Position numbers and translations under genes: made by a program. Source: a virus. Taken from it: a DNA stretch of 64,000 nt. How positions within the stretch are numbered: the first letter of the stretch is position 1; each line of letters opens with the position of its first letter. Positions 4,662 to 61,152 of this stretch are shown in pieces. The notes beneath the pieces were generated by a model. It ran no database searches. It worked only from the letters and a program-made list of their open reading frames with translations, and was not told where the DNA came from. The stretch covers positions 11,522-75,521 of the IMG/VR virus record IMGVR_UViG_3300050019_000176, one strand, 5' to 3'.

Positions 4662-4691
4662 CTGGACATTTGGACAATCCTGACGCACAAT
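4662..4691 (+). promoter_or_regulatory. Putative promoter overlapped by tandem TGGACA half-sites
   Basis: CTGGACATTTGGACA; TGGACA-17nt-CACAAT upstream of AAGGAG..TTG. Confidence 0.5.
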
Positions 4692-4709
4692 CAGGGTAAG
4701 GAGAAGAAC

Positions 4710-6030: not shown

Positions 6031-6097
6031 GCCTTCATTGTACACCCGCGTGCAAAGGTTCTGGACATTTGGACAGGACTTGGTTTACCATAAAGGC
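6031..6097. promoter_or_regulatory. Divergent promoter region with tandem TGGACA half-sites
   Basis: Leftward TACAAT (6037-6042), rightward TGGACA-18nt-TACCAT, CTGGACATTTGGACA at 6061-6075; gene orientation switches here. Confidence 0.6.
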
Positions 6098-6120
6098 ATG
6101 GGAATTGTGGGTCGGCGCTG

Positions 6121-6330
6121 ATGGCAAAGAAGCGTGTGAAGGACCCATGCTCCTACTGCCACCGAGCGGCGACGGTGCGGTGTGATGTGGAGGGGTTGAC
6201 CATCGGTTCGCTGGAATGCGGTCGCGCCTGCTGCCCACGGCACTCGACGAAGTTGCCGAACGGGCAGGTACGATGCTTGGGGCATGAGGGCGTTGGGGAG
6301 CAGGTGTCCAATGTCTTGCCCAAGACATGA
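6121..6330 (+). CDS. Small Cys-rich Zn-finger protein
   Basis: CSYC..CD..CGRACCPRH..CLGH. Confidence 0.65.
   Translation: MAKKRVKDPCSYCHRAATVRCDVEGLTIGSLECGRACCPRHSTKLPNGQVRCLGHEGVGEQVSNVLPKT
6305..6327. repeat. Dispersed palindrome copy 1
   Basis: TGTCCAA-TGTCTTGCCCAAGACA. Confidence 0.9.
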
Positions 6331-6512
6331 AGGCTCTTGACTACTGGACAAGCTGTGCCGGGAAAATCCCACTGACCGGGAAGGTGGCGCGGAAGGTGGC
6401 GAAGAGGATGACGAGCCGAGACAAGGAGATATACGTCTGCTATAGATGTAGGTTCTGCGGGGGTGGCACTTGGCACGTGGGGCATAAACGAGAGGATAAA
6501 GTAGATGGATAA
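6327..6512 (+). CDS. Small Zn-binding protein
   Basis: CAGK..YRCRFCGGGTWHVGH; ATGA overlap. Confidence 0.65.
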   Translation: MKALDYWTSCAGKIPLTGKVARKVAKRMTSRDKEIYVCYRCRFCGGGTWHVGHKREDKVDG

Positions 6513-6738
6513 CACTCCAATTACGGGATGTAGTGGATGCGCCACTACGGGTGGCCGGATGGGTTGTCCGCATCACGGGACGCTGGCCATTACACCGCTA
6601 AGTCCAGCAACGGTGGGCTGGGTCTGTCCAAAGTGCGGTAGGGGGAATTCCCCACTATTGATGACCTGTCCATGTAATTTGTTGAAGATGTGGGACTATG
6701 CTCCGCCTCCAGCCAGACCGGGCGGTGGGGGTTGGTAA
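6505..6738 (+). CDS. Small Cys-rich protein
   Basis: GCSGC..GCPHH..GWVCPKCGRGNSP..CPC. Confidence 0.65.
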   Translation: MDNTPITGCSGCATTGGRMGCPHHGTLAITPLSPATVGWVCPKCGRGNSPLLMTCPCNLLKMWDYAPPPARPGGGGW

Positions 6739-6932
6739 TGGCTGAAGACATCTTCGTTTCCCCGGAAAAAGCCAGTGAGATGACGGGCATCTGTGGGCGC
6801 ACGCTGCGCCGATGGATCGAGGCCGGTCGATGTCCTGGCCGGCGCGGGCCGACGGGTCGCTACTCGGTGCCGATGACCTGGATACGCCAGCACCTGAAGG
6901 GGAAGGACGATGCCATTGCTGCCGCTGAGTAA
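6738..6932 (+). CDS. Excisionase/MerR-like winged HTH DNA-binding protein
   Basis: VSPEKASEMTGICGRTLRRWIEAGRCPGRRGPTGRYSV. Confidence 0.8.
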   Translation: MAEDIFVSPEKASEMTGICGRTLRRWIEAGRCPGRRGPTGRYSVPMTWIRQHLKGKDDAIAAAE

Positions 6933-8499: not shown

Positions 8500-8503
8500 T
8501 CCC

Positions 8504-9307
8504 ATGAAGGCATTCGAGAAACTGATCGAGAAGGCGATGGCGAGGACGCAGGGGATGCCACCGCGTGAGCAGTGGGCATCTATCCAGCAGCAGGTGGAGG
8601 TGTTCTTCGACATATTTGAGGATGGCGGCGCGATCGGGTATGCGGGGACGGCTGCGGAAAAATCGGCTGCGGACAAGTTCCGCACGGTGTTGGCATCGGA
8701 CCTTCAGCAAGTCATCCAGAAGGCCAATCCCAATGGGCTGATCCTACTGCCAGGGAGGAAAGAAGACATTGATTCGGCTGTCCCCGTGGGACCTCCGGTC
8801 CGTATCGTCTACGCCGGCGGACCGTCGGCCGGCGACGAAGCGGCGCTTCCGGTGGAACACTGGCTAACCCTCGACGCCTTGGTGGAGGAGGTCCGTCGTG
8901 TGATGCCGACGGTGATTGAACTCGACCTACCGGGCTTCGCACAACCGCTCAAACTCAACCGGAAGATCACCCCCGGTCCGCCAGTCACCGAAGGCGTGAA
9001 GTTCTTACGTTTGCAGTACTTGGCGGAAGGCGCACCGGACGGCCCCGGTGTCTTGTGCAAGACATCGGACAGTTCGGTAGACGTCCAATCCATTCTCAGC
9101 GAGATCCAGGCCGGTGCGGTCGCCCAGTTCAGCGCCACGCAGCGCAAAGTCGAACCGCGGACGCCTTACGTGCGGCCACCTTCCCTCGATGAGCTTCGTC
9201 GGATGATGCCTTCGTCTGATCCCGGTCCAGGGAAAGACGAGGAACGTGCTCCTCATGACGAAGACATCGTCACCGATCGCAACCGATGGGACCGCTATGC
9301 CAAATAG
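8504..9307 (+). CDS. Hypothetical protein
   Basis: 267-aa ORF in operon; contains a copy of the 16-bp palindrome. Confidence 0.75.
   Translation: MKAFEKLIEKAMARTQGMPPREQWASIQQQVEVFFDIFEDGGAIGYAGTAAEKSAADKFRTVLASDLQQVIQKANPNGLILLPGRKEDIDSAVPVGPPVRIVYAGGPSAGDEAALPVEHWLTLDALVEEVRRVMPTVIELDLPGFAQPLKLNRKITPGPPVTEGVKFLRLQYLAEGAPDGPGVLCKTSDSSVDVQSILSEIQAGAVAQFSATQRKVEPRTPYVRPPSLDELRRMMPSSDPGPGKDEERAPHDEDIVTDRNRWDRYAK
9049..9071. repeat. Dispersed palindrome copy 2
   Basis: TGTCTTGTGCAAGACA-TCGGACA. Confidence 0.9.
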
Positions 9308-19950: not shown

Positions 19951-20334
19951 ATGACTTTTACCCGCGTTAAAATCTTGGCATTGTCCGGATCTCTGATCTG
20001 GATGGGACTGGCGTTTTCCCAGTCAACGAGAAACTCCCTAAGTACTCAGGATCGTATTCAGGATCTCAACGATAAACTCCAGGATCATCTAGTGACTGCC
20101 GAAGGCAAGATCGCCGAAGTGTCCGACCTGCAACGTAGGGTGAACATCATAGAGGCTGGAGCCAGGGCAGACCGGCTGGATGCCCGCGTGGCGCGCATAG
20201 AATCCAACGTAGAAAGCCTTCACTCGATGTTCTGGGGAATCCTGATTCCTGTTATGCTGATGGGGGCTGAGGCGATCATGCGGTTGATCGTAGCGGCACA
20301 GTCGGCCACAAAAAAACGGCTCGGCTCGGGGTGA
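19951..20334 (+). CDS. Membrane coiled-coil protein (possible holin/spanin-like)
   Basis: Signal/TM, coiled coil, C-terminal TM. Confidence 0.65.
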   Translation: MTFTRVKILALSGSLIWMGLAFSQSTRNSLSTQDRIQDLNDKLQDHLVTAEGKIAEVSDLQRRVNIIEAGARADRLDARVARIESNVESLHSMFWGILIPVMLMGAEAIMRLIVAAQSATKKRLGSG

Positions 20335-20357
20335 TGTCTTGGACAAGACATTGGACA
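20335..20357. repeat. Dispersed palindrome copy 3
   Basis: TGTCTTGGACAAGACA-TTGGACA. Confidence 0.9.
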
Positions 20358-20753: not shown

Positions 20754-22979
20754 TTGGGCTCGATCGTCACCCCGCGCGGCCCGCTGATCAAGGTCGCCCA
20801 GTACATCCCCGCCGGCCGAGATCTGGAAGTCTACTCCCGCCTCGAATACTTCGACCAACCAAACCTAAAAAACCAGTGGGACCGCCTATCTAAGAAGGAC
20901 CTGAATTGGATCGACGAAGAGGTTGGCCGTATCCAGGACGGGTTCAAGGGGTTCGTCTACGCTGCCCGCAACTACTTCTGGATCAAAACCAAGAAACAGG
21001 GAGAACAGTTATTCTCCCTGTGGCCGTCACAGGAACTGCTGCTCGAAGTATTGACCGAGATGCGGAACAAGGGCCTTCCGCAGAAGGTCATGATCATCAA
21101 GTCTCGGAAACTCGGGTATTCCACGCTCATCGAAGCGCTGCTTGCTTGGCGGACGATGTTTTTCACCAACCAGGAGGGCATGGTGGTCTCGTTCGACCCG
21201 GAGAGTGCCGCCTACCTGTTCGGCATCATGCAGTTGATCTATGACCGGATGCCGTGGTTCCTGAAACCCATGTGCTCGTCTCGCGAGTTCAAGGAAGGGC
21301 TGAAGTTCGAGAACCCCAACTACAAGGGCCGCGGCGATGACCCCGGGCTAAACTCTCTGATCACCGTCCAGGGAGCCAACAAGAAGACCGGTATCGGACA
21401 GGGAATGACACTTTCTGGCGTGCATTTTTCGGAATTCTGTGATGTAGATGACAAGCAATGCAAGCAGATTATCCAGGAAGATATGGGTAACGCTCTCGGG
21501 CAAGGGCCGGGAGTATTCGCTATCCTCGAATCGACGGCGAAGGGTGCTGGCAGGTATGCCCACTGGCTCTGGATGAAGATGTGCGAGTTGGGAGAGAGGG
21601 CGGACTGGCGACCGGAGTTCTTCCCGTCCTTCTTCGATGCTGAGAATTTCCTGGCACCTCCCGGAGGGTGGCAACCGGAGGACAATGAGGCCGGCATCCG
21701 CGCCCAGGCGGCGCAGGAGTGGGTGCGTTGCAATGCCGCAGACTGTCTGCGGTATCAGCGCCGCTACCTGTCCGGGGAAGACCGCAACCAGACGACGTGC
21801 CCATCGTGCGGCGTCGGTGTACTCCAGGACCTGCTAGTGACCAACGGGTTCCTATACTGGATGGAGCGGAAGCGCAAGAACGCCGAAGGGGATGCCGAGT
21901 CGTTATCACTACTTTGGCAAGAACAAGCTGTCACCGCAAGTGATGCGTTTGTGGTGAGTGGCAACCCGGTTTTCCCTGCCGAAGCGCAGAAGTGGGCGGC
22001 GTCGAAGTGCACTGACAACTACGTCGAGGTCTTCATCTCCGCTGACGGGCACTTCCACGGTGTGCACCCCAAGCACAATCATTGTATCGATGCTGACTGC
22101 GAGGAAGACCACAGTTTCGACCGGCGCCCCATCAAACTGTATGAGTTGCCGATCCCCGGTGCGCGGTACGTCTGCGGGGGAGATCCATCCCACGGGAACG
22201 GCGGCGAGGCCGACTACTTCGTGGGTTCAGTGATTCGAGTGCCATCGCAGGGTGCCGATATCCAGGTAGCCGTCGCCCGGGCGAACGACATCGACCCGAC
22301 GGATCAGGCGATGATACTGAACTACTTGGGGCGTCACTACAACGATGCGTTGATGGCGGTGGAAGCAAACAAGTTGGATGTCGTCGCCAGCGATCTTCGG
22401 ACGAAGTGGAACTACCCTAACCTGTACAAGGAGCGAAACCGGTCCACCGGCCAGCCGACTGGCAGGTTCTGCTGGATCACCGATGAAAAGAGTAAGCCGG
22501 CGATCTACCTGCACATGAAGCGGTGGCTTCGCCTGCACCTGTTCGAACCGCGGTCCCGCAACTTCGCCGAGGAGATGAAGTTCTTCCGGAAGGAGGATAC
22601 TGAATCAGACAAGGCCGGCGCGATCCGGAAGTTCAAAGACGACGAGGTGATGGCGTCGTGTGTGGCTCTGTACGTTGCCCACTCCGACGACTGGGATGAG
22701 AACCTGGGGATGATCCGGATTCAGCAGGCGATCACCAACGAGAACTGCACTTGGCACATGTCGTGTGATGCCTGCGGTTTCCATTGGCCTTCCAACGACA
22801 TTGCGGCGGAGAAAGCCTGTGGACAGTGTGGGTCGATGTGTTTCTCGGCGCGGCAGAACCCCGAGTACAAGAAGCCGGAGGAGGAGCCCGCTGAGGAGGA
22901 CTTCTTTGCGGAGTTGAACCGAATGCTCAAGACGACAGACGACACCGACCCCAACAACCCGGACTACGCTCTACTCTGA
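20754..22979 (+). CDS. terL: Terminase large subunit
   Basis: Q motif LWPSQ, Walker A IIKSRKLGYST, Walker B VHFSE, coupling ESTAKG, nuclease GGDPS/AVEAN/DDEVMA. Confidence 0.95.
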   Translation: MGSIVTPRGPLIKVAQYIPAGRDLEVYSRLEYFDQPNLKNQWDRLSKKDLNWIDEEVGRIQDGFKGFVYAARNYFWIKTKKQGEQLFSLWPSQELLLEVLTEMRNKGLPQKVMIIKSRKLGYSTLIEALLAWRTMFFTNQEGMVVSFDPESAAYLFGIMQLIYDRMPWFLKPMCSSREFKEGLKFENPNYKGRGDDPGLNSLITVQGANKKTGIGQGMTLSGVHFSEFCDVDDKQCKQIIQEDMGNALGQGPGVFAILESTAKGAGRYAHWLWMKMCELGERADWRPEFFPSFFDAENFLAPPGGWQPEDNEAGIRAQAAQEWVRCNAADCLRYQRRYLSGEDRNQTTCPSCGVGVLQDLLVTNGFLYWMERKRKNAEGDAESLSLLWQEQAVTASDAFVVSGNPVFPAEAQKWAASKCTDNYVEVFISADGHFHGVHPKHNHCIDADCEEDHSFDRRPIKLYELPIPGARYVCGGDPSHGNGGEADYFVGSVIRVPSQGADIQVAVARANDIDPTDQAMILNYLGRHYNDALMAVEANKLDVVASDLRTKWNYPNLYKERNRSTGQPTGRFCWITDEKSKPAIYLHMKRWLRLHLFEPRSRNFAEEMKFFRKEDTESDKAGAIRKFKDDEVMASCVALYVAHSDDWDENLGMIRIQQAITNENCTWHMSCDACGFHWPSNDIAAEKACGQCGSMCFSARQNPEYKKPEEEPAEEDFFAELNRMLKTTDDTDPNNPDYALL

Positions 22980-27338: not shown

Positions 27339-27362
27339 TGTCTTGGGCAAGACATCTGGACA
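27339..27362. repeat. Dispersed palindrome copy 6
   Basis: TGTCTTGGGCAAGACA-TCTGGACA. Confidence 0.9.
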
Positions 27363-32000: not shown

Positions 32001-32031
32001 TGTCTTGCACAAGACATTGGACATTTGGACA
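32001..32031. repeat. Dispersed palindrome copy 7
   Basis: TGTCTTGCACAAGACA-TTGGACA-TTTGGACA. Confidence 0.9.
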
Positions 32032-44969: not shown

Positions 44970-46628
44970 ATGGCTTCCAATAACGCACCTCCGGGATTCC
45001 CCAAGTTCGACCCCGTCGACATCATCGGCGAACAGCTTGCTGCACAGTACCCAAACCTTGACCTGTCGAAACTCAACCGGATGTTCACTAACATCCTCAC
45101 GGAACTACAGGATTCCCAGTCCGCCGCAGCGACGGCACAGACTACCGCCAACACCGCTTCCGCAACCATGGGTGCAAAAACCGGGACACACGCACAACGG
45201 ATCGGCTTACCGGTCCCGGATAATGGCACGATCTTCGTTGAGACCGACCGCAATGATGTCGCCTATCAAGTCCAAGGAGGAGTGTGGCGATACGTTCTCG
45301 GGGAGATGTTTGGGGTGCTGTCCGGCAGGCCAACGGACCTTGGGGCGAACGATGAGGGATTCCTGTACTCGGCATCGAATGCGCTGGACTACCGATGGAG
45401 CGGAACCGCCTGGGTGAGCCTGGATACCGTGCGCGGCGGGACGGCGCTGGTGGATGTCGGTCGGCTGATAAAGGTGGGCGCCACTGGAACGCTTGGAGAA
45501 ACGGCGTTCGCGGATAGCGCCGTGGTTTTGGGTGCAACCAACCTGACGCACGCCAACCATCTTCTGAAGGTAGATGGGTCAAGCGGGACAGCTACGGAGA
45601 GCGTAGTCACCGACGACGGGACGACGGTTGTTATCAACAAAAATACCGTCGCACCCGCCGCAGCAGCGGCGGGAACGATTTTGCAGTTGGCTGGAGCAGA
45701 CGCCGCTGCCGCCCGAGCCCTCATCGATGCCTATGGCGGCTTTGTAACGATTAGCGGACGGAGGGCAAACGGCACAGCCGCTGCCCCATCGGCATTGGCC
45801 GCCCTTGATGTCATCGCCGGATACCAAGCGCGTGGGTACGGGGCGACGGGATATTCGGCCACCAGCCGCGCCCAAATGGCTCTTGCCGCCGCAGAGGCTT
45901 GGTCGGATACCGCTCAGGGAACACGGATTGACTTCTATACCACTCTGAACGGCACGGTCACGACCATCCTACGGATGACCATCGCTGACGACGGAAAAGT
46001 CGGTGTCAACTGCGTCCCGGCCTACCAGTTCGATGTGGGTGGAGGCATCAACACTAGCACCGAATACCGACTCGGCGGAACGGTGGTGATTGCATCTACC
46101 GAAGCGGCGAACACCTTCCTACGCGGGCCGACCAGCGGCGCGGCTGCGCTCCCTTCCTTCGGGGCACTTGTAAGTGCAGACATCCCGAACAATGCCGCCG
46201 ACACCTCTGGGACTTCCGGGAACACCACAAAAGTTAACGGGGCATCCGTGCCCGCTTCGGCCGGATTCCTCGGTAGCAACGGGTCCAGCCAGTTGGTGTC
46301 CGTATCGTCGCCTACTATCCTAACCGGCCAATCCGTCGTGACGGGAAGTAGGAACCTCACCTCGATATACCAAAACACTGGGGCGAAGCCAATTTACGTT
46401 CTAGTGACACTGGCCTGTACGGCGGCCGGCGGAGCCAATTTCGGGCAGGCCGAGGCCAGGACGGACGCATCCGCCACGCCGACGACGACGGTGGGCAGCA
46501 CGTTCAATGGATCTGCCACGGCGACCGTCAACCAGCAGATGGCCTTCTGGGTGCTCCCAGGGAACTATTACCGCGTCGTCGTCGTGACCACCACCGTTAC
46601 CCTGTCCTGTTGGACAGAGTGGAGTTGA
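44970..46628 (+). CDS. Tail fibre protein
   Basis: G/A/T-rich; RRANGT..P.A..D.I..RGY, AEAWSDTAQGTRIDFYTT, RMTI..GKVG; C-terminal YQNTGAKPI..VLPGNYYRV..W.EW. Confidence 0.8.
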   Translation: MASNNAPPGFPKFDPVDIIGEQLAAQYPNLDLSKLNRMFTNILTELQDSQSAAATAQTTANTASATMGAKTGTHAQRIGLPVPDNGTIFVETDRNDVAYQVQGGVWRYVLGEMFGVLSGRPTDLGANDEGFLYSASNALDYRWSGTAWVSLDTVRGGTALVDVGRLIKVGATGTLGETAFADSAVVLGATNLTHANHLLKVDGSSGTATESVVTDDGTTVVINKNTVAPAAAAAGTILQLAGADAAAARALIDAYGGFVTISGRRANGTAAAPSALAALDVIAGYQARGYGATGYSATSRAQMALAAAEAWSDTAQGTRIDFYTTLNGTVTTILRMTIADDGKVGVNCVPAYQFDVGGGINTSTEYRLGGTVVIASTEAANTFLRGPTSGAAALPSFGALVSADIPNNAADTSGTSGNTTKVNGASVPASAGFLGSNGSSQLVSVSSPTILTGQSVVTGSRNLTSIYQNTGAKPIYVLVTLACTAAGGANFGQAEARTDASATPTTTVGSTFNGSATATVNQQMAFWVLPGNYYRVVVVTTTVTLSCWTEWS

Positions 46629-46632: not shown

Positions 46633-46656
46633 TGTCTTGTGCAAGACTTTTGGACA
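46633..46656. repeat. Dispersed palindrome copy 9
   Basis: TGTCTTGTGCAAGACT-TTTGGACA (1 mismatch). Confidence 0.88.
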
Positions 46657-50085: not shown

Positions 50086-53000
50086 ATGGCCGACGTCGAC
50101 TACAGCGTACTGGCCCAGCAGGCGAGGGACGCCACCCCGCCGCCGCCGGACTATGCGGCGATGGCCCAACAGGCGAGGGACGCCACCCCGCCGCCGCCGG
50201 ACTATGCGGCGATGGCCCAACAGGCGAGGACGTCTGCGCCAATTGACTACAACGCGCTCGCACAACAGGCCCGTAGCATAACAACTACGCCGCGCACCAA
50301 CCCGGAGGGAATCCTGGAGGGTGTCGGTAAAGATCTCAGCATCGGCTTCCGAACTGGCGTAGCCGACATCGCGCACACCGCCGCCAATGTCTTGGACAAG
50401 ACACCGTTCACCGACTTCGCCGACCGCACTCGTGCCTTCGCCGCCGAAGAGGAGCCAAAGCCGGAGGAGACGGTTGACCGCGGCGGATTCGGTAATGCCC
50501 TGGTACAGGGGGTTGGTGGGCTGGTTCCTTCGGCCGTAAAATATGCTCCGGCGATGGTGGCCAAGAAGTGGGCACCACTCGTGGCCGGTGCTATCGAGGC
50601 AGCGGGGAAGGCCGACGAAGGGCTGGTCCCAGCGATCAAGGCTGGAGTGAAGGGTGCTGCCCAGTTCGCTTTGGTTGGCAAAGCGGCAGACCTACCCACC
50701 CGGGCGCAACGCGCGATCGGCATGTCTGCGGCGATGGCCACGCCGGCGCTGATCGAATCAAAGGGGAACACCGCACAGACCGCCTCCGCCGCGGTACTCG
50801 GCGCAGCGATGGGTGGGTTATCCAAAGCGCCAAAGGGCGAGACATCGCCGGTCATGGATGAAGCCATCTCCGCCGGAAAGCAGTTGGCGGATAACTTCAA
50901 GAGTGTCTTCGACCCACAGTCGCGCGAGTTCAAGGGGAGCACAGCCCCACCGAATGCCGCTGCACAGACAGCGACAGTGGCCCGCGCTCACCTTGGCGAG
51001 ATGTGGCAGAAGGGCGTTCAGGTGGAAGATTCGCTAAGGAAGTTGAGTGACTTCTTCGACGAGCAGGCACCAGATCCAAGATTCCCCGAAGGCCCATCGA
51101 CGCCGGCCATCGACTTCATGATGGCAATCCGTAAGGGGAATGTTGACCAGTTGCCGGAAATGATGCAGCCGTTCGCCAAGGTGGTGCGGGACACGTACGA
51201 CAATCGCGCCGAAGTCATGCAGCAGAAGGGCATCCTGAAAAGCTACGTCGACAACTATTTCGGTCTGTTATGGAAGCGCGGTGGCGACAATCCGGACTTC
51301 CAAGCCATCGCCAAGAAACCCCTGGAGGGGCAGAAGGGATTTGCCAAGCAACACGTTTTCGACGATGTGATGGAAGGACTGGAGTACGCGCAACAGAACC
51401 CAGACTCCGGGTTGCAATTGGCCTTCAATAACCCGGTCGACTTGGTGATGAGCAAGGTCCGGGAGATGGACAAAGCCATCATGGCGCACGATACGCTTTC
51501 GGAGATGCGGGACATGGGACTCTCGCAATTCGTGCGGCAGGGTACTCGGGCACCGGATGGTTGGACGCAGATTGATGACAAGACGTCGACGGTGATGTTC
51601 AAAGACCCCCGGACGGACATGTGGACGCTGGCGGGACACTGGTTCTCACCGGAACCGGCGGCGAAGGTAATCAATAATTATCTCTCGCCCGGACTGGGAA
51701 AGAACGCTGCTTTCCGCGGATACAAACTGGCCGCCAACACCATGAACCAATTCCAATTGGGATGGTCGGCGTTCCACCTTGGATTCACCACGTACGATGC
51801 CATGCTATCCCAGTTCGCGCTCTCGGCGGAGGAAGCCGCCACCGGCCTTGCACGCAAAGACCCGGCTCTCATGGCGAAGGCGGCAGGGCATGCACTCACC
51901 GCACCATTCGCCGCGTTCGAACCCATCGTGGCCGCTGCAGCGCACCAAATCTCCCCTGAACTTGGGAAGATGTTCCGCTCGAATCAACTCATGCAGGAAT
52001 GGCGAAATCCTGGATCGTTCCCCCAACTGGCTCCCATTGTGGAGTATGCCAAGCAGGCCGGCGCCCGCTTCGAATTGGACCCATTCTACAAAAACGATCT
52101 CTGGCGCAACATGAAGCAGACGTACTACGAAGGCAATGCCCTCGGTGCTGCGCTGAAGTTGCCCACGGCGATAACCGAGCAGTTGGCGAAGCCCATCATG
52201 GAGTACGTGGTACCGCGCCAGAAGGCGGCAGTATTCGCCAAACTGACGGAGTTCGAGGTAGGGAAACTGGGGCCGAACGCGACACAGATGCAGGTACGCA
52301 GTGCGGTACAGTCGGCATGGAATAGCGTCGATAACCGAATGGGGCAACTCGTTTATGACAACCTGTTCTGGAATCGGACGGCAAAGGATCTGGCGATGAC
52401 CAGCATCCGGAGCGTGGGTTGGAACCTGGGAACGTGGCGAGAACTCGGCGGCGGCATGAAGGATTGGGCGAATGCCGTGCTGAATGTCACTACCGGAGGA
52501 CGGGTTGGCAAGATGCCGGAAGCCTACCACCGGATGGCATACGCTGCCACCCTGCCGGTAGTCACCGGACTGATCGGCGGAATCACCACCTATCTGGCTT
52601 CCGGTCAAGCCCCACAGTCTCTGACGGATCTCTACTTCCCGAAGACCGGTGGAACGGATGAATATGGTCGACCGGAGCGGATCTCCCTGCCTTCGTACAT
52701 GAAGGATGTGTACCATTACGGGAGCGGATTCGGCGAAGGGTTAAGATCCGGCGTCCGCCAGATGGGTAAGACAGTGGCGGGGAAAATGCACCCTATGATC
52801 CAGTTGATGGCCGACATGTACGAGAACTCCGACTGGCAAGGGAATAAACTCTGGAACGAAGACGATCCGATGATGAAGCAGTTGTACGGCGCCGTGCAAC
52901 ACACCGGATCGCAACTAATGCCGTTTGGTCTGCGCCGAGCCATCGAAGATACGGTCAACACCGAAGTGCGCGGAGTGCCGCCGCGGTACGGAGCATTGGA

Positions 53001-53547: not shown

Positions 53548-56500
53548 ATGGCCGACTGGACTCCCACACCGCCAACACCAAGCGAATCGCAGGACCTGAA
53601 GAACCTGTCTTCGATGCCGGGGATCTCTACCCTGTCGCCGCAGAGTCGTCGCGATGCGTACCGTCGCGCCGTGCCATCGTTGGCGGGAGCCCCAGATCAG
53701 TTCCTCGATCAAGTCCACCAGAGCCTCGCTGGTCCCCCGCAGAGCGCCCCGCCTCCCGGCGCGTCAATGCCGCAGGCGTTCCATACTTCCACAGTAGTTC
53801 CGGGGATGACGGCTCCAGTTCCCATGACCGGCAGTCGAGCGCGGTCGATTGTAAATGTCCCCGGTGCACCGCTGGACATGCAGCAGGTCAGTCGGTCCTC
53901 GGTATTCACGGATGCGGCGAAGGCAGCGGTCACCGTTGCCGGACCGATGGGGATGGGAGCGAAACTTGCCAACCTGACGGGTCCATTGATCTCCAAAGAC
54001 TACCAGCAGGTTCCGGAAACAGCGACCGATACTTGGGACAAAGCCTGGGGCGGATTGATGGATAGGTTCGCCGGAAGCGATGTGGCACAGGCGGGAGTTA
54101 AGACGGCATCCAAAATCACCGGTTTGCCGATCGAGAATGCCGTTCGAACCGTTGCCGGCGCAGGCCGCTCCGTAATGAAGATGTCGGACTTCCTTCAGAG
54201 TCCAGTTGGTGGGTTGACGGTCGCCGGCGCCGCAGCGTTTCCCGCAGTCGGACTCGCCGCCATCGGCATGGGGGCCTGGAATACGATCAACGAAGGTATG
54301 GCTGCGCTGGACAACCCCACACCCGAAAAGGTGGGAGAGGTTATCACCGACGCGTTGCTTCTGTACGGAGCCAAGAAGGGAATCACAAAGACTAGGGTAG
54401 CGCCGACAGAACCCGGTGGACAGCCGGGGATGATCGGGAAAATATCCAAGAACGTGCTCGATGGACTCATTCGCCGAATCTCGCAGAGGTTCTCGGGGAC
54501 TGACCCGCGCTCCGTGCAGATGCGGGCGAGTCTCGATGCCATCGCGGCCGAGACGGAATCGCGTGGGGTCCAGCCCGGAACCGCCTCGAAGGGCACGGGC
54601 ACGGTGACGCCGCCAACAGGTGGTGGACCAACCCCTAGCACTCCTACAACGGAGAATCCACTGGCTCCGCGCGGCGATATCCGAACTGCCACCGGCGAAC
54701 AGATCAGTGCTGCGTGGGATGCTGCCAGAGCCAAATCCCCGAACGCCCCATCTGGTGCTAAGACCTTAGCGCAGGCTACTCCAGCCGACATCGATGCCGC
54801 ATGGAATGATGGCGGAAATCCCACTCCTCGGCCATCGGCCCCGCCGCGTCCAGCGGGTAACGTTGAAACGCAGAACATTGTAGGACCCGATGGGCGCGTC
54901 CAACAGGTACAGGTACAGACTTTGGCCGAAGGGCCACCCCCAGGTAAGGGGAACACGCTGGAAACGATAACGGAATCCCCAAATACCAGCCTACTTGATC
55001 AGATCGCCGAAGGGGGTGGTGCGCTACGATCTTCGCCGCCTCCGGGTGCGGTTTCGGCAGGCACCAAGGCTCCATCCGCCGTGACGAAACTGTCCAGTCC
55101 GGCTCTCATCAGCCTCCTGCAGGTTGAGCAGGACCGGAACAAGCGCAACGTCCTTCTCGACGAAGCCACCCGCCGAGGGCTCCACCCGCCGGACTACCGC
55201 GGGCTCACCGATGACGCGCTGCGCGCCCAGTGGGGAGTGGAAAGCAATCCACAAAAACTTCAGAACCTGAACATCGAAGCGCAGGCGCGCGGTTTGGATC
55301 TCGGGGCTCCGCCGCAACGCCCGATGGAGCAGGGAGAAGCCGCGACCGACCAAGCGGCGAACGCCGGGGCATTCGGCTATCAGGCCAACCGCGCCTTCGA
55401 GCAATCCCGGCAGAAGGCTCCGGGAGCATCCGTACCGGCCACTGGCGAAGACGATCTCGACCAGCGCGCCCGCGCTATAGCCGACGGCTACAAGGTGGAC
55501 TACGACACCCTGGACGATGGCGACAAGCAGGCGCTGCGTGATCTGGCGAGTCAGGGCCTGGGGAGCGTAACCCCTCCCGCGCCAGCGGCCCCGCGACAAG
55601 TCGGTGTCCAATTGTCCAATGTCTTGCCCAAGACATCGCCGCCGCCGAAGACTCCGCCGCCGACTGCCGCGCCACCTGTCAAGGAACCCTTGACAACTCC
55701 CCCCGTGTCACCCGCCGCCGCGCAAGAGCAGCCATCGGTGCCCGAGTCTCCCACTCCCCAGGTTCCGGCAGAAGTGGCCGGTCAGACTCCCCTGCCAAGC
55801 GTAGGTGGAAATCAGGGGGCGCCGCCGGCCGCCGCGCCCCTCGCAGAACCCGCCTCCGGGGTGATCACGGACAATGGCAACCCGCCACCAAAGATCGAAG
55901 GTGCTCCGTGGTCCAATCCAGAACACGATTCCCGCTACATTGAGGAGTCGGCCAGGAACGCTATGTACGTTCAGCCGGGCGTCCCCGGCGTTGCGCCGCC
56001 GCCGAGCGGCGACCAACTGAAGTTCCCCACCTCCTTCATCGAAGCCGACCCCGATCGCTTCCAGTACAAGATCGGTGCCGTTGGTAAGGGCGGGACTACA
56101 GACGAGATGCGGGATATCCAGAACTGGGATCCGACCAAGGCTGGAACGATCCTGGTCTGGAAAAACCCCGAGGACGGCAAGGTCTACGTGACCAACGGAC
56201 ACCACCGTCTGGAACGCGCTAAGGCCCTCGGTGTGCCGTGGATGGACGTTCGGTTCACCAACGATCAGGCTCCGGACGCTGCCTCGGCGCGGGCGGTCGG
56301 CGCGATGGCGAACATCGCCGAAGGGCGTGGCACCTCGGTGGATGCCGCCAAGGTATTCCGCGACGGCAAACTGACACCAGAAGCGCTCGCCAAAGAAAAC
56401 GTTCCCATCCGCGGCAAGATCGCGCAGCAGGGAATGGCACTCGCCCAACTGGCACCGGCCATCTTCTCGCAAGTGGTCAATGGCGATCTCACCCCAGAGC

Positions 56501-59500
56501 GCGGCGCGCTTATCGGCGAAATGCTTCCCGACCATGAGCAGCAGTTGGCCGCACTGAAAGTCCTTGACATGGGAGAGCGCAAAGGCAAACTACTCAGCGA
56601 CAAGGAATTGCGCGACATGATCGCGCGAGTGCAGCGCGGTCCACAGAAACTGGAAACGAGTGCCGACCGAGCGCAGGGGGAGATGTGGGACTTCGGCGAT
56701 GTGATGCGCAGCTACGCATTCGAGGCCGCCCAACTTTCCAGTTACGTGCGCGAGCGTATCGGCAAGGAAAAGCGCCTGTTTGGAACCGTAGGCGCTAACG
56801 CCGGAGCGCTGGGTAAGGCGGGCAACAAGATCGACGTTGCCAAGAGTGAGCAGATCGCCGAAGATGCCAAGGTGGCTAAGGCGATGTACGACAAGCTGTA
56901 TGATAAAGATGCACAGATCGAAGCGGCCATTAACGAAGGAGCCCGGCAGGTCGCTGAGAAGGAGGCAAGCTACAATGACGTCGCCGACAATCTCTACAAC
57001 TGGGTCCGGGACCGGCTCGAAGGCATCCTCAACCCCAACCGCAAAGGCACCGAATCTGGCAAAGTCGCTCAGGTGGCTTTTGGAAAACAACCTGGTGCGG
57101 AACAACCAGTTCGACCTACAGGACAAGCCGAACCAGAAAGCAAAGTAGAACCAGCCCCCGCGCCGAAGCCAACGCCACCGAAGAAAGCTAAACCGGCACC
57201 AGCGCCGGCGAAAAAGGCCGAACCGCCGACGAAATCCACTCCACCGCCAGCCGAACCGGCGAAAAAACTGTCCGACATGTCGATGGAGGAGGCGTTCGAC
57301 GCCTACCAGCAGGCTAAAAAAAAAGTAGGTAGTGGACCGCCCCAACAGCGGGCCGCGCAATCCGACCAACCAGCCATCCAGTTCAGCGAAGCGCCACCCA
57401 ACGCGATGTCTGCTGAGTACCGAGAGTTTCTGGACTGGTATGAGACAATGATATCAGCGGAGTTCGCTAACGGAGATATCTCCCCGGACTCCTCCAAAGC
57501 GGAGAAATTCTACAAAATCTTCCCCACCATCGGTGAAAAGTATGCACCAAAGAAAGCCAATGCACCGAAAGGCAGTAACCAGCCCGCCGCCGCAGGAACC
57601 GTGGACGTCGGTTCAAAACCCAACGCAGGAGCAAATGCGGTCGGCGGACCAGAACCCGGAGAGCCTGGACTGGAATCGCCTGGCAGCGATGGAGTGCCTC
57701 TCCTCAATAAAACAATCGTCTCCGTCGGCAACCCTCCGGACGTCGACACCTCCTCCGTCCCCAAGCCACGAACCGCAACCCTAGCACCGCACCAAGCGAA
57801 AGCTATTGCTGCATCTATACGGGCAATGGATAAGATAGGCGGTTTCCTAAATTCCTCTGGCGCTGGTTCAGGCAAGAGTACGAATGCTGCCGCAGTAGCC
57901 CGCCATTATCTCGATGCGGGAAAATCCGTATTCTTGGTGGCCCCCGCCGAAGTGATGAAGTTCAAAAACCAAACCACCGGGATGCCGTCGTCCTCCTATA
58001 AGTTCTGGTTTGACGAATATGGTCTAGCCCCGGATCGCTACATCGCGCAGCAGACCTTCGAGCCGGGTAAGATGTACGTTTCCACATACGACAAGTTTTC
58101 CGAAGCCCCAGTTAACGCAGGTACCGTCCTGATATTCGACGAATCCCACGCACTTCGCAATCTAGGGGACTCGCAGCGATCCGAGTATGGGGCGAACCTC
58201 ATTGATCGTGCTGGCCATGTTTTGTTCATGTCTGCCACCCCAGCCGACAAACCGTATCAGATCGGATACTTGAAAAAGATGGGGCTACTGGAAGACAAAT
58301 CAGAAGCACAGGCCATCGCCGATCTCGGCATGGAGTTGCAGCAGAAGGTCAACAAGAAGACCGGCAAGACGTTCCAGAAGTGGGAGGTCCGGGAGGGAGT
58401 CGACCCACGAACGATCAGGAAACGTTTTGTGGATTTGTTCACCCGCATGATCGAGAACGGCAACATGCGGAAGGACGAAATCCTGCTCGATGGTCTTGAC
58501 ATCCAGGCGATGAATATCCACCTCCCCGAGGAAGGACACGAAGTCCAACGGTTTTTGACGAAGGAGATGAACTCGCCGAACACGGCGGTGCGTCTGATGC
58601 ACCTTCGACGCCAGCAGGAGCCGTTCAAAATCGACGCCACGATTGATCTCGTCAAGCACGAGCTCCGGCAGGGGCGGAAGGTCGTGGTATTCGCGGCGCG
58701 GGTTAATGCCAGCGATGTGATCAACCGGCACCGAGACCCCTATTCCGGGGATGTAATCGAGGACGTGATCTACTCCTCCGAGGGGACGTTGAAGACGCTG
58801 AAGCGCCGTTTCCAAGAGGAAGGGATTACCCGCATCGCGGAATTGCACGGAGCGGCCGAAGAGAAGGGTGCCGCGGCGATGGATCGGTTCCAGGCCGGCG
58901 GTGCCGACGTTATCATCGCAACATCTAAGTCCGGTGGAACCGGGATTGACCTGGATGATACCAAGGGAGATGCACCACGGTCTGTAGTGGTCATGACCCC
59001 AGACTTCGATGCTTTGTCCAATGTCCAGTTGATGGGCCGCATCTACCGGATGTCCACCAAATCCAATGGGCGGGTGTTCTACCTATTCGCCGATACGCCG
59101 GTGGACCGCTGGAACGCCGGAATCTTCAGCGAGAAGATGAAGACCCTCGCGTCCGTTGTGCAGGGCGAGTCCAAGAAGATGGACGTGGCGCAGTTCTTCG
59201 GCAATGCCGCCGATGACGAACTGCGGGAGTACCTGAAGGGCAGTGCGCCGAAGGAAGCGAAGGCACGCCCGCTCCGCGGCGCACGGTACGGCGACTACAT
59301 CGAGTTCTTCGGTGACGACGCGCACACCGTAGCGGATGCCACTGGCCTGCCAATCCATAAGGCAAGGAACGGAAAGGAGATCGCCGGGTTCCCGGTGAAA
59401 GACCTTTCGTTGTACCAGAAGCAACTAAACGATAAGGGCATATCCTTTAATTACATCGACCGATCGGCAGACAACATGTGGCACCGAAGGCCGGCGGTCA

Positions 59501-61152
59501 ACACCGACCGGGGCTACAAGTTCCCCGAGCAACCCCTCCTCCAGCGGAGCGCGCCGACCCCATCCGCCGACCAGGGCGACCTGTTCGACAAAGCCCTCCG
59601 GGAAGTCGATCTCTCGCCGGAGGCCCGACGTGCGGCGCGCGGTGCCGTCCGCTACCAGCCCCAGGTGCTGGAGCGGTGGACGGACCGGGCAGGCAAGGAG
59701 ATCGAGATCCGCAAGCTCGACGAGCACTCCTTCTGGAAGTACCTGACCAACCAGGACCCAGGCGTCGAGACGTACGCCGACTTCCAGGCCAAGTACCCTT
59801 CGGCGAAGTACTACTCGGTCTACCGAAACCCCAAGGGGTACGTGTTCAATCTCTCTGCCGTTTCACGGAGCATGAACAACCTGCGTCCAAGGGGCGGCGA
59901 GAAGGTGGAGAAGTTCACCTCGCCGATGCCCGACGCACATCTGGACATCGCGTCCCACTTCATTGAGCAGTCCCAGCCGCCGCACGGGTATGCCAAACAT
60001 ACCCCGGAGGAATGGCAGCGAAGGCGCGTGGCGAACGAGCCAGCATCGGGCATGCCGCCGATGTGGCAAAAGTCTGATGTCCAGATGTCCAATGTCTTGC
60101 CCAAGACATCACCACCGCCGGGCTCCGTGGAGACGCTCAACATGTTCCCCGACGGCGAGGCGGAGCGCCTGGAGCAGGAGCACACGCTCGACCGCGCCAT
60201 CCTGGAGGCACAGCGTCTGTCTGCGGAGTTTGGTTCGCCGCTTACCCGCACCAATCTACGTAAGGCACTAAAGAAGGCCAAACTTCCAGAGCAGGGCGAC
60301 ATCTTCGCTGGCCCGCTGGAGGAAGACGAAGGCAATGGCTTGCTGTTCTCCAAGCCGTTCTCCGACGTTCCTTACGACCGGACGAAGGGTCCGGACGCCA
60401 TGATCGAGAGCGCCCGCATGCGGTACTATCCACCGAGGTCTGGCCGCCCGGGTAGGGTGTACATCAACCAAGCCGGGGTCCAGATCCTTCGCGGCGTGTT
60501 CAGCCGGATCGGGTGGGATTCCGGCGGTATGGACGGAATCCAACTTGAACCGCGGAGCGTTGCGCAGATCAACGGAGTTCTTCGCCACACCAAGTCCCGT
60601 GCCACCATGTCCGAAGGCGCGGTGCAGGTGTTGGATCAATTAGCCGACATGCTGGACACTGCCGTAAGAGACAATGGAGAATTCGCTGTGATCCGCGCCG
60701 GCGACGGGCGCACCATCGCTGAAATCAAGGCCACCGTCAGCCACGAAATGTCGCACGTAGTCCAACAGTGGTTCAGGACAGAAGACCCAGAGGGAGTGTA
60801 TTTTACGCTGGCCGCCTCACGCTCACTGCCGAACTACCAAAAGGCAGAGCGGCAACTGATTGACCAGTGGAGATACCCGGACAAGAAGATCGAACTCTTC
60901 CAGGAGATTCTGTCCCATACTCTCGCAGGCCAGCACGGTAGGCTGGATCTCACCGAAGAGGAATCCACGGCGCTGTTGTTCGCTATCCGCCGTAACGCGC
61001 TAGAATATATAGAGGGGAACGCTGATGAACTATTCAAGTACGGTCGCCCAGGAATCCGAAAAGCCATATCCGGGGGATTTGTTCCCCGGACAAGCCTCCC
61101 TCCAGGAGCTTCTCGCTACGCTGGACAGGGCAGTGTTGGCGAACGACCGTGA
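53548..61152 (+). CDS. Giant polyvalent (DarB-like) protein: ParB-like domain, SF2 helicase (Strawberry-notch-like), MutS domain I-like, HExxH peptidase-like
   Basis: DPDRFQYK..VTNGHHRL; SGAGSGKST, FDESH, MSATP, GGTGIDL, QLMGRIYR; YGDYIEFFGDDA..AGFP; SHEMSH. Confidence 0.85.
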   Translation: MADWTPTPPTPSESQDLKNLSSMPGISTLSPQSRRDAYRRAVPSLAGAPDQFLDQVHQSLAGPPQSAPPPGASMPQAFHTSTVVPGMTAPVPMTGSRARSIVNVPGAPLDMQQVSRSSVFTDAAKAAVTVAGPMGMGAKLANLTGPLISKDYQQVPETATDTWDKAWGGLMDRFAGSDVAQAGVKTASKITGLPIENAVRTVAGAGRSVMKMSDFLQSPVGGLTVAGAAAFPAVGLAAIGMGAWNTINEGMAALDNPTPEKVGEVITDALLLYGAKKGITKTRVAPTEPGGQPGMIGKISKNVLDGLIRRISQRFSGTDPRSVQMRASLDAIAAETESRGVQPGTASKGTGTVTPPTGGGPTPSTPTTENPLAPRGDIRTATGEQISAAWDAARAKSPNAPSGAKTLAQATPADIDAAWNDGGNPTPRPSAPPRPAGNVETQNIVGPDGRVQQVQVQTLAEGPPPGKGNTLETITESPNTSLLDQIAEGGGALRSSPPPGAVSAGTKAPSAVTKLSSPALISLLQVEQDRNKRNVLLDEATRRGLHPPDYRGLTDDALRAQWGVESNPQKLQNLNIEAQARGLDLGAPPQRPMEQGEAATDQAANAGAFGYQANRAFEQSRQKAPGASVPATGEDDLDQRARAIADGYKVDYDTLDDGDKQALRDLASQGLGSVTPPAPAAPRQVGVQLSNVLPKTSPPPKTPPPTAAPPVKEPLTTPPVSPAAAQEQPSVPESPTPQVPAEVAGQTPLPSVGGNQGAPPAAAPLAEPASGVITDNGNPPPKIEGAPWSNPEHDSRYIEESARNAMYVQPGVPGVAPPPSGDQLKFPTSFIEADPDRFQYKIGAVGKGGTTDEMRDIQNWDPTKAGTILVWKNPEDGKVYVTNGHHRLERAKALGVPWMDVRFTNDQAPDAASARAVGAMANIAEGRGTSVDAAKVFRDGKLTPEALAKENVPIRGKIAQQGMALAQLAPAIFSQVVNGDLTPERGALIGEMLPDHEQQLAALKVLDMGERKGKLLSDKELRDMIARVQRGPQKLETSADRAQGEMWDFGDVMRSYAFEAAQLSSYVRERIGKEKRLFGTVGANAGALGKAGNKIDVAKSEQIAEDAKVAKAMYDKLYDKDAQIEAAINEGARQVAEKEASYNDVADNLYNWVRDRLEGILNPNRKGTESGKVAQVAFGKQPGAEQPVRPTGQAEPESKVEPAPAPKPTPPKKAKPAPAPAKKAEPPTKSTPPPAEPAKKLSDMSMEEAFDAYQQAKKKVGSGPPQQRAAQSDQPAIQFSEAPPNAMSAEYREFLDWYETMISAEFANGDISPDSSKAEKFYKIFPTIGEKYAPKKANAPKGSNQPAAAGTVDVGSKPNAGANAVGGPEPGEPGLESPGSDGVPLLNKTIVSVGNPPDVDTSSVPKPRTATLAPHQAKAIAASIRAMDKIGGFLNSSGAGSGKSTNAAAVARHYLDAGKSVFLVAPAEVMKFKNQTTGMPSSSYKFWFDEYGLAPDRYIAQQTFEPGKMYVSTYDKFSEAPVNAGTVLIFDESHALRNLGDSQRSEYGANLIDRAGHVLFMSATPADKPYQIGYLKKMGLLEDKSEAQAIADLGMELQQKVNKKTGKTFQKWEVREGVDPRTIRKRFVDLFTRMIENGNMRKDEILLDGLDIQAMNIHLPEEGHEVQRFLTKEMNSPNTAVRLMHLRRQQEPFKIDATIDLVKHELRQGRKVVVFAARVNASDVINRHRDPYSGDVIEDVIYSSEGTLKTLKRRFQEEGITRIAELHGAAEEKGAAAMDRFQAGGADVIIATSKSGGTGIDLDDTKGDAPRSVVVMTPDFDALSNVQLMGRIYRMSTKSNGRVFYLFADTPVDRWNAGIFSEKMKTLASVVQGESKKMDVAQFFGNAADDELREYLKGSAPKEAKARPLRGARYGDYIEFFGDDAHTVADATGLPIHKARNGKEIAGFPVKDLSLYQKQLNDKGISFNYIDRSADNMWHRRPAVNTDRGYKFPEQPLLQRSAPTPSADQGDLFDKALREVDLSPEARRAARGAVRYQPQVLERWTDRAGKEIEIRKLDEHSFWKYLTNQDPGVETYADFQAKYPSAKYYSVYRNPKGYVFNLSAVSRSMNNLRPRGGEKVEKFTSPMPDAHLDIASHFIEQSQPPHGYAKHTPEEWQRRRVANEPASGMPPMWQKSDVQMSNVLPKTSPPPGSVETLNMFPDGEAERLEQEHTLDRAILEAQRLSAEFGSPLTRTNLRKALKKAKLPEQGDIFAGPLEEDEGNGLLFSKPFSDVPYDRTKGPDAMIESARMRYYPPRSGRPGRVYINQAGVQILRGVFSRIGWDSGGMDGIQLEPRSVAQINGVLRHTKSRATMSEGAVQVLDQLADMLDTAVRDNGEFAVIRAGDGRTIAEIKATVSHEMSHVVQQWFRTEDPEGVYFTLAASRSLPNYQKAERQLIDQWRYPDKKIELFQEILSHTLAGQHGRLDLTEEESTALLFAIRRNALEYIEGNADELFKYGRPGIRKAISGGFVPRTSLPPGASRYAGQGSVGERP
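55605..55635. repeat. Dispersed palindrome copy 11
   Basis: TGTCCAAT-TGTCCAA-TGTCTTGCCCAAGACA. Confidence 0.9.
60078..60108. repeat. Dispersed palindrome copy 12
   Basis: TGTCCAGA-TGTCCAA-TGTCTTGCCCAAGACA. Confidence 0.9.

Follow-up and report, generated by a model that had tools for sequence, protein, structure and literature searches.

The stretch of DNA under study, referred to here as the window, is 64 kb long and comprises bases 11522-75521 of a 75,521-base viral contig from IMG/VR whose estimated completeness is 77%; the complete genome of the phage is probably about 100 kb. A nucleotide search of a phage collection with this phage returned no relatives, and the clade in which it falls is uncultured, podovirus-like and characterized by genomes of roughly 100 kb. 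Because neither an integrase nor a ParA was found, the phage is judged to be probably lytic. The genes in the window include those for the large terminase, the portal protein and the tailspike and, following the tail genes, a 2534-aa ORF (53548-61152), and the window is punctuated by a 16-letter palindrome, TGTCTTGNNCAAGACA, which is present in 10 exact copies (6312, 9049, 20335, 25623, 27339, 32001, 35524, 50388, 55620 and 60093) and 2 one-mismatch copies (22997 and 46633), compared with 0.01 copies expected from shuffled sequences. All twelve had been listed in a preliminary description of this DNA and were found again at the same positions. No further cores with two or three mismatches exist in the window, compared with 2.19 expected by chance at three mismatches, so the palindrome set is sharply bounded. 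Two more cores lie upstream of the window, at genome position 484 (exact) and genome position 5627 (one mismatch, with two flank units), which brings the total to 14 and the density to about one core per 5 kb. The arms of the cores are invariant while the central two positions vary freely, and the spacing is over-dispersed, with a minimum gap of 1716 bp (P=0.007).

The cores are accompanied by heptad units with the sequence TGTCCAA (TTGGACA in the other orientation), and 15 of the 27 exact heptads in the genome lie no more than 24 nt from a core, i.e. within 1.2% of the sequence. The units lie on one side only, as the preliminary description had recognized; they are present at an offset of 0-1 at 10-11 of the 14 cores, and five cores have a second unit 8 nt further out; either orientation occurs. 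Within the plus-strand gene block, 5 sites have their flank units on the left and 5 on the right, so that the orientation of the units is independent of the direction of transcription. Units also occur without an adjoining core. The pair CTGGACATTTGGACA is found on the plus strand at 4662-4676, upstream of the ORF starting at 4710, and at 6061-6075, upstream of the ORF 6121-6330; both pairs had earlier been placed on putative promoters, and both do overlap sigma-70-like matches, which are weak (9/12 positions). Inverted extension-type units, TGTCC-TGTT-GGACA, are present at 46603-46616, 16 nt upstream of the core at 46633. By inspection and in a promoter scan of 4-10 kb, no consistent -10/-35 partner was seen beside the sites, and the possibility that the TTGGACA units beside the cores are themselves sigma-70 promoters was rejected because no -10 partner is present at the right spacing.

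Placement of the sites relative to genes and codons

Gene junctions hold seven of the twelve window cores, and the other five lie deep inside genes. At 6305-6327 one TGTCCAA and an exact core encode the SNVLPKT end of a 69-aa Cys-rich ORF (6121-6330) and overlap the next ATG (6327). At 20335-20357 an exact core with one TTGGACA lies where ORF 20092-20334 stops and the gene ahead of the large terminase starts (TTG at 20339 or 20351), and 18 nt past the large-terminase stop (22979) two TGTCCAA units and a one-mismatch core follow at 22982-23012. The exact core with CTGGACA at 27339-27362 is intergenic, 18 nt past a stop and 34 nt ahead of the start at 27388; so is the exact core with two TTGGACA units at 32001-32031, which ends 22 nt ahead of the GTG (32054) of a conserved 386-aa structural gene. 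At 35517-35539 one TGTCCAA and an exact core make up codons 5-12 of the tailspike gene (ATG 35504), encoding SNVLGKT, and the one-mismatch core with one TTGGACA at 46633-46656 is again intergenic, 5 nt past a stop and about 60 nt ahead of the next start. A start codon lies within about 70 nt of seven of the twelve window sites, compared with 13% at random (P=3e-4), and several sites overlap RBS or start codons instead of recognisable promoters.

The copies within genes comprise an exact core with a degenerate unit, TCGGACA, at 9049-9071 in the 267-aa ORF 8504-9307, where it encodes VLCKT; a bare exact core at 25623-25638 in the portal gene, at the family-conserved AVLY(K/R)TWK; a bare exact core at 50388-50403 in a 1151-aa ORF, where it encodes VLDKT; and two exact cores in the 2534-aa gene, one preceded by two TGTCCAA units (55605-55635) and the other by TGTCCAG and TGTCCAA (60078-60108), both of which encode SNVLPKT. 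The earlier observation that the cores dictate protein sequence, with SNVLPKT twice in the 2534-aa protein, SNVLGKT at the tailspike start and VLYKT in the portal, is therefore accurate, and all 6 VLxKT peptides in the proteome are encoded by the motif, compared with 0.36 expected. A peptide-level meaning of (M)SNVLxKT was rejected, since the DNA motif and codon usage between them generate the peptide: the GC3 is 0.70, and under a codon-usage model 84% of chance placements fall in the frame used by the intragenic copies, so the frame that they share is due to codon usage. The portal copy aligns without gaps to the AVLY(K/R)TWK of 25 homologues and is therefore not an insertion, which removes repetitive extragenic palindromes and miniature mobile elements from consideration. 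It is the DNA sequence that is under selection, and the five copies within genes arise through codon choice.

Palindrome lattices of related phages

A scan of relatives, which the preliminary description had suggested, found lattices in them, but with a different palindrome in each phage. These relatives, whose portal proteins are 35-51% identical to that of the present phage (closer portal fragments, 94% and 84% identical, are also known), bear palindromes of up to 25 copies, many of them of the form GTC-N8-GAC, including GTCCAAYRTTGGAC (25 copies), GTCCGR..YCGGAC (17), GTCCCA..TGGGAC (13), TCCAG..CTGGA (19) and GTCTYT..ARAGAC (10). The lattice is clade-wide, and the palindrome is specific to each phage. 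Relatives' palindromes often directly precede an RBS; in the complete relative G001, 18 of 25 sites lie no more than 60 nt from a gene boundary (P=1e-6). Over-dispersed spacing is found in three genomes, the present one included (P=0.007, 0.0001 and 0.006). The constraint on codon choice in conserved structural genes, together with the evolution of a separate word by each phage, points to strong continuing selection.

A ParB-like protein encoded on its own is present in four relatives (G001, G003, G015 and G017), recognised through TIGR00180 (E=1e-4), sulfiredoxin (E=0.006) and an alignment with Spo0J. The recognition helix of its HTH tracks the palindrome half-site: a helix with ..AD.RRG goes with GTCCAA in two phages in which the protein shares 36% identity, GEIRRG goes with GTCCCA, and GQMRSG with GTCCGR. 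The complete relatives G008 and G010 have lattices and no detectable ParB-like gene, and a tblastn comparison across 12 genomes found no gene whose presence follows the lattice type. Most early genes were left unnamed by Pfam, PHROGs and NCBIfam.

Candidate readers and competing explanations

The reading of the sites to which we attach an even chance is that the palindromes form a genome-wide operator lattice for a dimeric HTH protein of the phage's own, gating transcription in a manner like that of KorB/OB or of stoperators. One phage-encoded, sequence-specific protein of this kind would dock on double-stranded DNA at each palindrome, with each monomer reading one TGTCTTG arm and the central two bases left unread, and the TGTCCAA units would be auxiliary half-sites for the one-sided recruitment of additional copies or of a partner protein. 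There would be about one site per gene block, at or just before RBS and start codons, and in long genes the sites would be written into coding sequence via codon choice; the bound protein would gate transcription across the whole genome, either by promoter occlusion or by a block of elongating polymerase. The anatomy, placement and spacing of the sites, the selection on their DNA sequence and the clade-wide occurrence of the lattice are read directly from the DNA; that a protein binds the sites, which protein this is and what it does to regulation are inferred. Invariant arms, a free centre and flank units split 5/5 in a region transcribed in one direction indicate recognition of double-stranded DNA rather than RNA, and the same features, with a flank orientation independent of transcription, sustain the earlier reading of the palindrome as a site for a dimeric protein. 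Several points weigh against an operator lattice: a pure promoter or operator role has no need of the five window sites deep inside genes, several sites fall on RBS or start codons and show no consistent -10/-35 partner, the even spacing would suit a structural role as well, and the lattice-bearing relatives lack a homologue of the local candidate described below, just as G008 and G010 lack a detectable ParB-like gene.

That candidate, g2, is an HTH/coiled-coil protein encoded at contig bases 500-820, just outside the window, and we put it forward tentatively as the reader. The palindrome at genome 484 overlaps the g2 start, and the structure model of the protein consists of a three-helix HTH and a long helix. 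Homologues are very few among 1.8 billion representatives, with three at about 50% identity; one of the homologues sits on one of only five metagenome contigs that contain the exact 23-mer, and has TGTCTTGGAAGACA directly before its RBS. No g2 homologue was found in the lattice-bearing relatives and no g2 relative in viral contigs, and it is somewhat less probable, though still quite possible, that something else is the reader. A ParB-like protein encoded in the missing 23% of the genome is an unlikely reader, and the ParB-like module of the polyvalent protein a more doubtful one, g2 being the better local candidate of the two. Nothing ties to the sites the Xis/MerR-type HTH_17 protein of 64 aa (6738-6932, plus strand) that had been named earlier as a candidate binder. 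The resolvase-type serine recombinase of 193 aa (genome 8272-8853) was rejected as reader because it is absent from lattice-bearing relatives.

The ParB-like domain placed at 56030-56640 by the preliminary description is real as a fold but doubtful as the binder. The ParB/Noc/KorB-like N-domain and HTH, a candidate reader, occupy 56146-56599 on the plus strand, about 500 bp downstream of the site at 55605-55635, and an AlphaFold model of window positions 55849-56820 matches Noc, ParB, KorB and Spo0J across both the N-domain and the HTH, with the best match to Noc (7nfu, E=2e-7) and others to ParB (6t1f), KorB (8qa9), Noc-DNA (6y93) and SopB-DNA (3mky). The same module is present at 24 other viral loci, 20 of which have no repeated palindrome within 10 kb on either side. 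The Pfam models ParB_N, KorB and HTH_ParB have zero matches in the contig, and where canonical ParB-type clamps have their CTP-binding box, of the GERRxRA type, the module reads NGHHRLERAK. The surrounding 2534-aa protein matches ResIII, Helicase_C and MutS_I and has at least 120 homologues among proteins of 1.4-4.4 kaa with LPD and ART-PolyVal domains, and it fits a polyvalent protein with a DdrB-like ParB domain (Iyer et al. 2017, PMC5512222). Polyvalent proteins of this kind are predicted to be packaged and injected (PMC5512222).

These properties underlie an alternative that we regard as unlikely, though by no means negligible, in which a ParB/Noc/KorB-like clamp has a non-transcriptional role: after loading at the palindromes it would slide or form bridges, and in this way organise, compact, tether or shield the phage DNA. 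The reader would be either the module of the polyvalent protein, arriving by injection, or a separate ParB-like gene that has escaped notice, and TGTCCAA would be a stop or partner site. The 7-2-7 format of the palindrome is that of ParB-family sites (SopB, parS, NBS), the modelled ParB N-domain and HTH and the predicted packaging and injection of the protein are in keeping with a clamp, the relatives G005 and G006 have both the polyvalent module and palindromes of their own, and in four relatives the stand-alone ParB-like protein varies together with the sites. A structural lattice would likewise account for even spacing and for copies within genes, but it has no need of the strong bias towards gene starts; the 20 module loci without a repeated palindrome, the DGHHR-type motif in place of GERRxRA and the silence of the Pfam models on this contig also count against a clamp.

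It is very unlikely that the sites act at the RNA level, as short hairpins at cistron 5' ends that would regulate translation or the stability of the mRNA, perhaps with the help of an RNA-binding protein. The copies at 484 (genome), 20335, 22997 and 35524 overlap or abut RBS or start codons, and the position of relatives' palindromes immediately before RBS would fit such a role; but the hairpin would have only 6 pairs and a 4-nt loop, which is weak for a genome of 58% G+C, and proteins that recognise RNA hairpins mostly do so in the reverse way, not through an invariant stem with a free loop. The RNAs would differ between sites, since flank units may precede or follow the core in the direction of transcription, GTC...GAC is kept across relatives even though an RNA stem could vary, and copies lie deep inside genes. 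Intrinsic terminators were rejected on account of weak stems and the lack of a U-tract.

The prospect that a host nucleoid-occlusion, partition or global regulator reads the palindrome and is hijacked by the phage is slimmer again. Five metagenome contigs that show no other relationship to the phage have an identical 23-30-bp element, and one of them encodes a response regulator and another integrases, which would be consistent with a host factor; against this, the core occurs at most twice in any of 800 bacterial genomes from two phyla, an 18-base version gives 11 chance-like single matches across 185,579 species genomes, and the palindrome differs in each related phage. The exact 23-mer is absent from the viral contigs and species genomes searched. 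By these searches the motif is phage-specific and not cellular.

The least credible explanation, a dispersed partition centromere of an N15-like plasmid prophage or a set of recombination sites for the serine recombinase, draws on the dispersed SopB sites of N15, the 193-aa enzyme and the TGTCY with which resolvase half-sites begin, but no ParA-type ATPase (PF13614, six-frame) was found in the 77%-complete contig or in G001, G003, G005 and G017, whereas 14 of 14 control genomes match, and no match to the tyrosine integrase model PF00589 was obtained for this contig, which has only the small resolvase, or for three complete relatives; direct terminal repeats occur in one relative, the resolvase is missing from lattice-bearing relatives, a 16-bp site is too short for resolvase crossover, and 14 such sites would scramble the genome. 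Without a ParA-type ATPase or an integrase in this contig and the three complete relatives, the centromere proposed in the preliminary description is left unsupported, while its account of sites that are dispersed over the genome and embedded even in coding sequence stands.

Known systems and biological meaning

The operator lattice proposed here may be compared with KorB/OB of the IncP plasmid RK2, a mobile genome across which about a dozen copies of a short palindrome are dispersed, some at promoters and others at a distance from them (PMC11790492). KorB is an HTH protein of the ParB family without a partition-only role, with 12 OB operators on RK2, and the OA site of a second protein, KorA, beside some of these operators sets where the KorB clamp acts (PMC11790492); the one-sided TGTCCAA units may be analogous to KorA/OA sites. 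The present phage shares with this system a dispersed identical palindrome, in 14 copies, at gene starts and deep inside genes. It differs in that no KorB, ParB_N or HTH_ParB profile matches the contig and no KorA was identified, and in that the genome is that of a phage rather than a plasmid, with evenly spaced sites written into conserved coding sequence. The stoperators of Cluster A mycobacteriophages such as L5 are similar in being repressor sites distributed genome-wide, mostly in short intergenic gaps at gene starts, where tens of identical sites block transcription throughout the genome (PMC9283540, PMC6550527). They are asymmetric 13-bp sequences, read by a monomer, oriented with transcription and used in lysogenic immunity (PMC9283540, PMC6550527), whereas the sites described here are palindromic and orientation-independent and occur in a clade without integrase.

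Noc/NBS and chromosomal ParB-parS also involve palindromes of 14-16 bp scattered over a replicon and often intragenic, but no amphipathic N-terminus and no ParA is shown in the phage. Those systems are cellular; they number about 70 sites per chromosome and serve in membrane tethering or partition. Among phages, the P1 C1 operators, the conserved inverted repeats of phiC31 and the SopB sites of N15 are cases in which one protein has many sites over the genome, including late-gene regions, and all serve lysogeny or the maintenance of a plasmid prophage; to our knowledge, none of these sets has been reported as evenly spaced or as clade-wide, phage-specific palindromes. The heptads of the Omega repressor (pSM19035) and BoxA/BoxB of P1 ParB are adjacent 7-bp units, direct and inverted, whose number and arrangement set the binding strength. 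Unlike these, the present units flank a strict 16-bp palindrome on one side only, and no ribbon-helix-helix protein was identified.

A narrow literature search brought up no account of lytic phages with lattices of this kind. It is conceivable, though we consider it improbable, that evenly spaced, phage-specific palindrome lattices are a widespread and undescribed form of self-marking by apparently lytic phages for a ParB/KorB-type or other dimeric HTH reader, which here might be the ParB-type module that the polyvalent protein would bring in on injection; from entry onwards the phage genome would be marked out as self and receive effector domains, or else be silenced and organised. A lattice whose reader had been worked out could also supply orthogonal sets of DNA-binding proteins and operators. 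As far as the narrow literature search extends, a global switch or scaffold of this kind is not yet described for this uncultured phage clade, and if one protein does read some 15-25 identical sites over an apparently lytic genome, it would provide just such a simple device.

Copies, placement and reading of the palindrome

The 16-bp palindrome TGTCTTGNNCAAGACA (the core) is dispersed through the window as the preliminary description had it, with ten exact copies (6312, 9049, 20335, 25623, 27339, 32001, 35524, 50388, 55620 and 60093) and two copies with one mismatch (22997 and 46633), compared to 0.01 expected from shuffled sequence. Raising the tolerance to three mismatches yields no additional copy, which means that each of the 14 specified bases is strongly constrained. 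Two further cores lie on the contig upstream of the window, at genome positions 484 and 5627. The one-sided extensions are equally real: ten or eleven of the 14 cores have a unit, the heptad TGTCCAA/TTGGACA, abutting one side only (the left at five sites, the right at five), and at five cores a second unit follows 8 nt further out. Genome-wide, 15 of 27 exact heptads are within 24 nt of a core; core-less unit pairs do occur at 4662 and 6061, and there is one inverted pair at 46603.

Seven of the 12 window cores (6312, 20335, 22997, 27339, 32001, 35524 and 46633) are located at gene junctions, no more than about 70 nt from a start codon (13% for random positions, P=3e-4), and several run across the start codon or the opening codons. 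The remaining five lie deep within genes of 0.8-7.6 kb. The smallest core-to-core gap is 1716 bp (P=0.007).

The intragenic copies bear on whether DNA or protein is the object of selection. The portal core encodes VLYKT and aligns without gaps to AVLY(K/R)TWK, a stretch conserved across 25 homologues (45-54% identity), and it therefore represents a choice of codons over pre-existing residues with no insertion. The predicted proteome has six VLxKT peptides, every one of them encoded by the motif, against 0.36 expected. The single reading frame common to all intragenic cores is attributable to codon usage (GC3 = 0.70; in a codon model, 84% of placements fall in that frame), so that the repeated appearance of (M)SNVLxKT is a side effect of the DNA motif. 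The central two bases vary freely, the arms are invariant and the flanks occur in either orientation; all three features point to a site read in double-stranded DNA by a dimeric protein, not to an RNA hairpin.

The phage, its relatives and their lattices

The window takes in bases 11522-75521 of a 75,521-base IMG/VR viral contig. This contig, of 77% estimated completeness, is a novel podovirus-like phage for which a nucleotide search of a phage collection found no relative. Its landmarks are a large terminase (20754-22979), a portal of P22/SU10 type (25075-26937), a major head protein (29747-30628), a pectate-lyase-type tailspike (35504-39889), a helicase-bearing giant protein of 2534 aa (53548-61152) and a minus-strand array of 27 tRNA genes (40-4041). 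Upstream of this array, on the minus strand, is a sigma-70-type promoter near consensus (TTGACA-16-TATACT with an upstream TG, 4190-4163), which suggests that the host uses ordinary sigma-70 promoters. A 63-bp tandem repeat of 5.3 copies (63669-64000) runs off the contig end, and its unit recurs about seven times in the same orientation within a 247-aa ORF upstream of the window (contig bases about 3560-3990); the repeats at the two contig ends probably belong to two paralogous proteins with 21-aa repeats.

Between terminase and portal, a 141-aa protein with an N-terminal CxxC...CxxC zinc ribbon (24409-24834), which we take to resemble the FmdB type, has no match in PHROGs and is kept in all 11 relatives examined at 29-39% identity. 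In the early region, immediately ahead of an HTH_17 gene, come three successive small ORFs (69, 61 and 77 aa; 6121-6738) that are Cys-rich and zinc-ribbon-like; none matches a Pfam family. The tRNA/HNH region contains a small serine recombinase (contig bases 8272-8853; Resolvase plus HTH, E=3e-43) which the relatives examined lack. The 92-aa product of 33539-33817, a predicted membrane protein, is 62-69% identical to its counterpart in the relative G001, as against only about 31-38% for the structural proteins shared with that phage, and this difference suggests recent exchange.

There are many portal homologues at about 35-51% identity, and eleven relatives' genomes were put together from separate pieces for comparison. 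Most carry a repeated palindrome of their own: GTCCAAYRTTGGAC in 25 copies in the complete genome G001, GTCCGR..YCGGAC in 17 in G003, GTCC(C/A)A..TGGGAC in 13 in G017, TCCAG..CTGGA in 19 in G002, GTCTYT..ARAGAC in ten in G008 and GTCCGC...GCGGAC in eight in G004, with smaller sets in G005, G006, G010 and G015; no repeated palindrome was found in G009. Shuffling the relatives' genomes leaves at most two copies of any such family. Many of these palindromes have GTC-N8-GAC in common, 18 of the 25 G001 sites are no more than 60 nt from a gene boundary (P=1e-6), and spacing is over-dispersed in relatives also (G001, P=0.0001; G003, P=0.006). The closest complete relative, G005, has a second repeat family, AGCGCAGATCTGCGCT, in five copies (e.g. 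contig positions 9564, 10920 and 14384); all are intergenic, T-rich tracts follow some of them, and their appearance is that of intrinsic terminators, not docking sites.

Among 241 million metagenome records, the exact 23-mer is present on only five contigs. One, L109, encodes a homologue of g2, an HTH/coiled-coil protein of this phage, with TGTCTTGGAAGACA directly before the RBS; the others look like mobile elements. L108 encodes integrases and a DnaB-type helicase and has, some 180 bp downstream of the site, an HTH_3 gene. At L108 3200-3620 variants with altered spacing (TGTCTT-N6-AAGACA at 3205) and a single TTGGACA occur alongside the exact site and its two units, upstream of the HTH_3 gene of 85 aa, an arrangement that resembles a compound operator region.

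Candidate readers

Three proteins are candidates for binding the cores. The first is a stand-alone ParB-like protein of 282-343 aa encoded about 5 kb upstream of the terminase in G001, G003, G015 and G017, in which a DGFHR ParB/Srx core is followed by an HTH (TIGR00180, E=1e-4; sulfiredoxin, E=0.006; Spo0J alignment) and whose predicted recognition helix varies in step with the half-site among these four phages. No such gene is found in the available 75.5 kb of the present phage, nor in several complete relatives.

The second candidate is the ParB-like stretch flagged earlier within the giant protein, which contains NGHHRLERAK and is upheld by structural modelling: the model of 55849-56820, made with two homologues (pLDDT 75-86 over residues 100-250), matches Noc, ParB, KorB and Spo0J across the N-domain and the DNA-binding domain, as well as the DNA-bound domains of Noc and SopB. 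The segment is a representative of the DdrB-like ParB module known from polyvalent proteins (PMC5512222), and the 2534-aa protein is itself polyvalent: this module is joined there by a MutS-I-like stretch and a helicase of ResIII/Helicase_C type. The more than 120 homologues of the protein measure 1.4-4.4 kaa and differ in the effector domains they carry. Of 24 other viral loci with the same module, 20 show no repeated palindrome within 10 kb on either side, so the module is not generally a lattice reader. The association of this phage's ParB-like fold with its sites is weak.

The third is g2 itself (contig bases 500-820, just outside the window; about 106 aa), whose start is overlapped by the core at genome position 484. 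It is modelled as a three-helix HTH followed by a long helix, with fold matches to generic HTH domains only, and its homologues among 1.8 billion representatives are three at about 50% identity together with weak low-identity matches.

Proposed function of the lattice

The sites are a real, strongly selected and evenly spaced lattice of putative docking sites. In 800 cellular genomes of two phyla, which may not include the host's, the core is present in at most two copies per genome, which is chance level, and hits in 185,579 species genomes are likewise only chance-like. The earlier proposal of a dispersed centromere is unlikely, as is a lysogenic immunity system, because neither a ParA-type ATPase nor a tyrosine integrase was found in this contig or in three complete relatives, and because one relative has direct terminal repeats.

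In its working the lattice would be most like the KorB regulator of the IncP plasmid RK2 with its OB operators, and the stoperators, the dispersed repressor sites of Cluster A mycobacteriophages. Unlike these systems, it belongs to a phage clade in which integrase and ParA were not found and which is, for that reason, probably lytic. Judged by the genomes compared, the palindrome is phage-specific, with a separate one in each phage of the clade.
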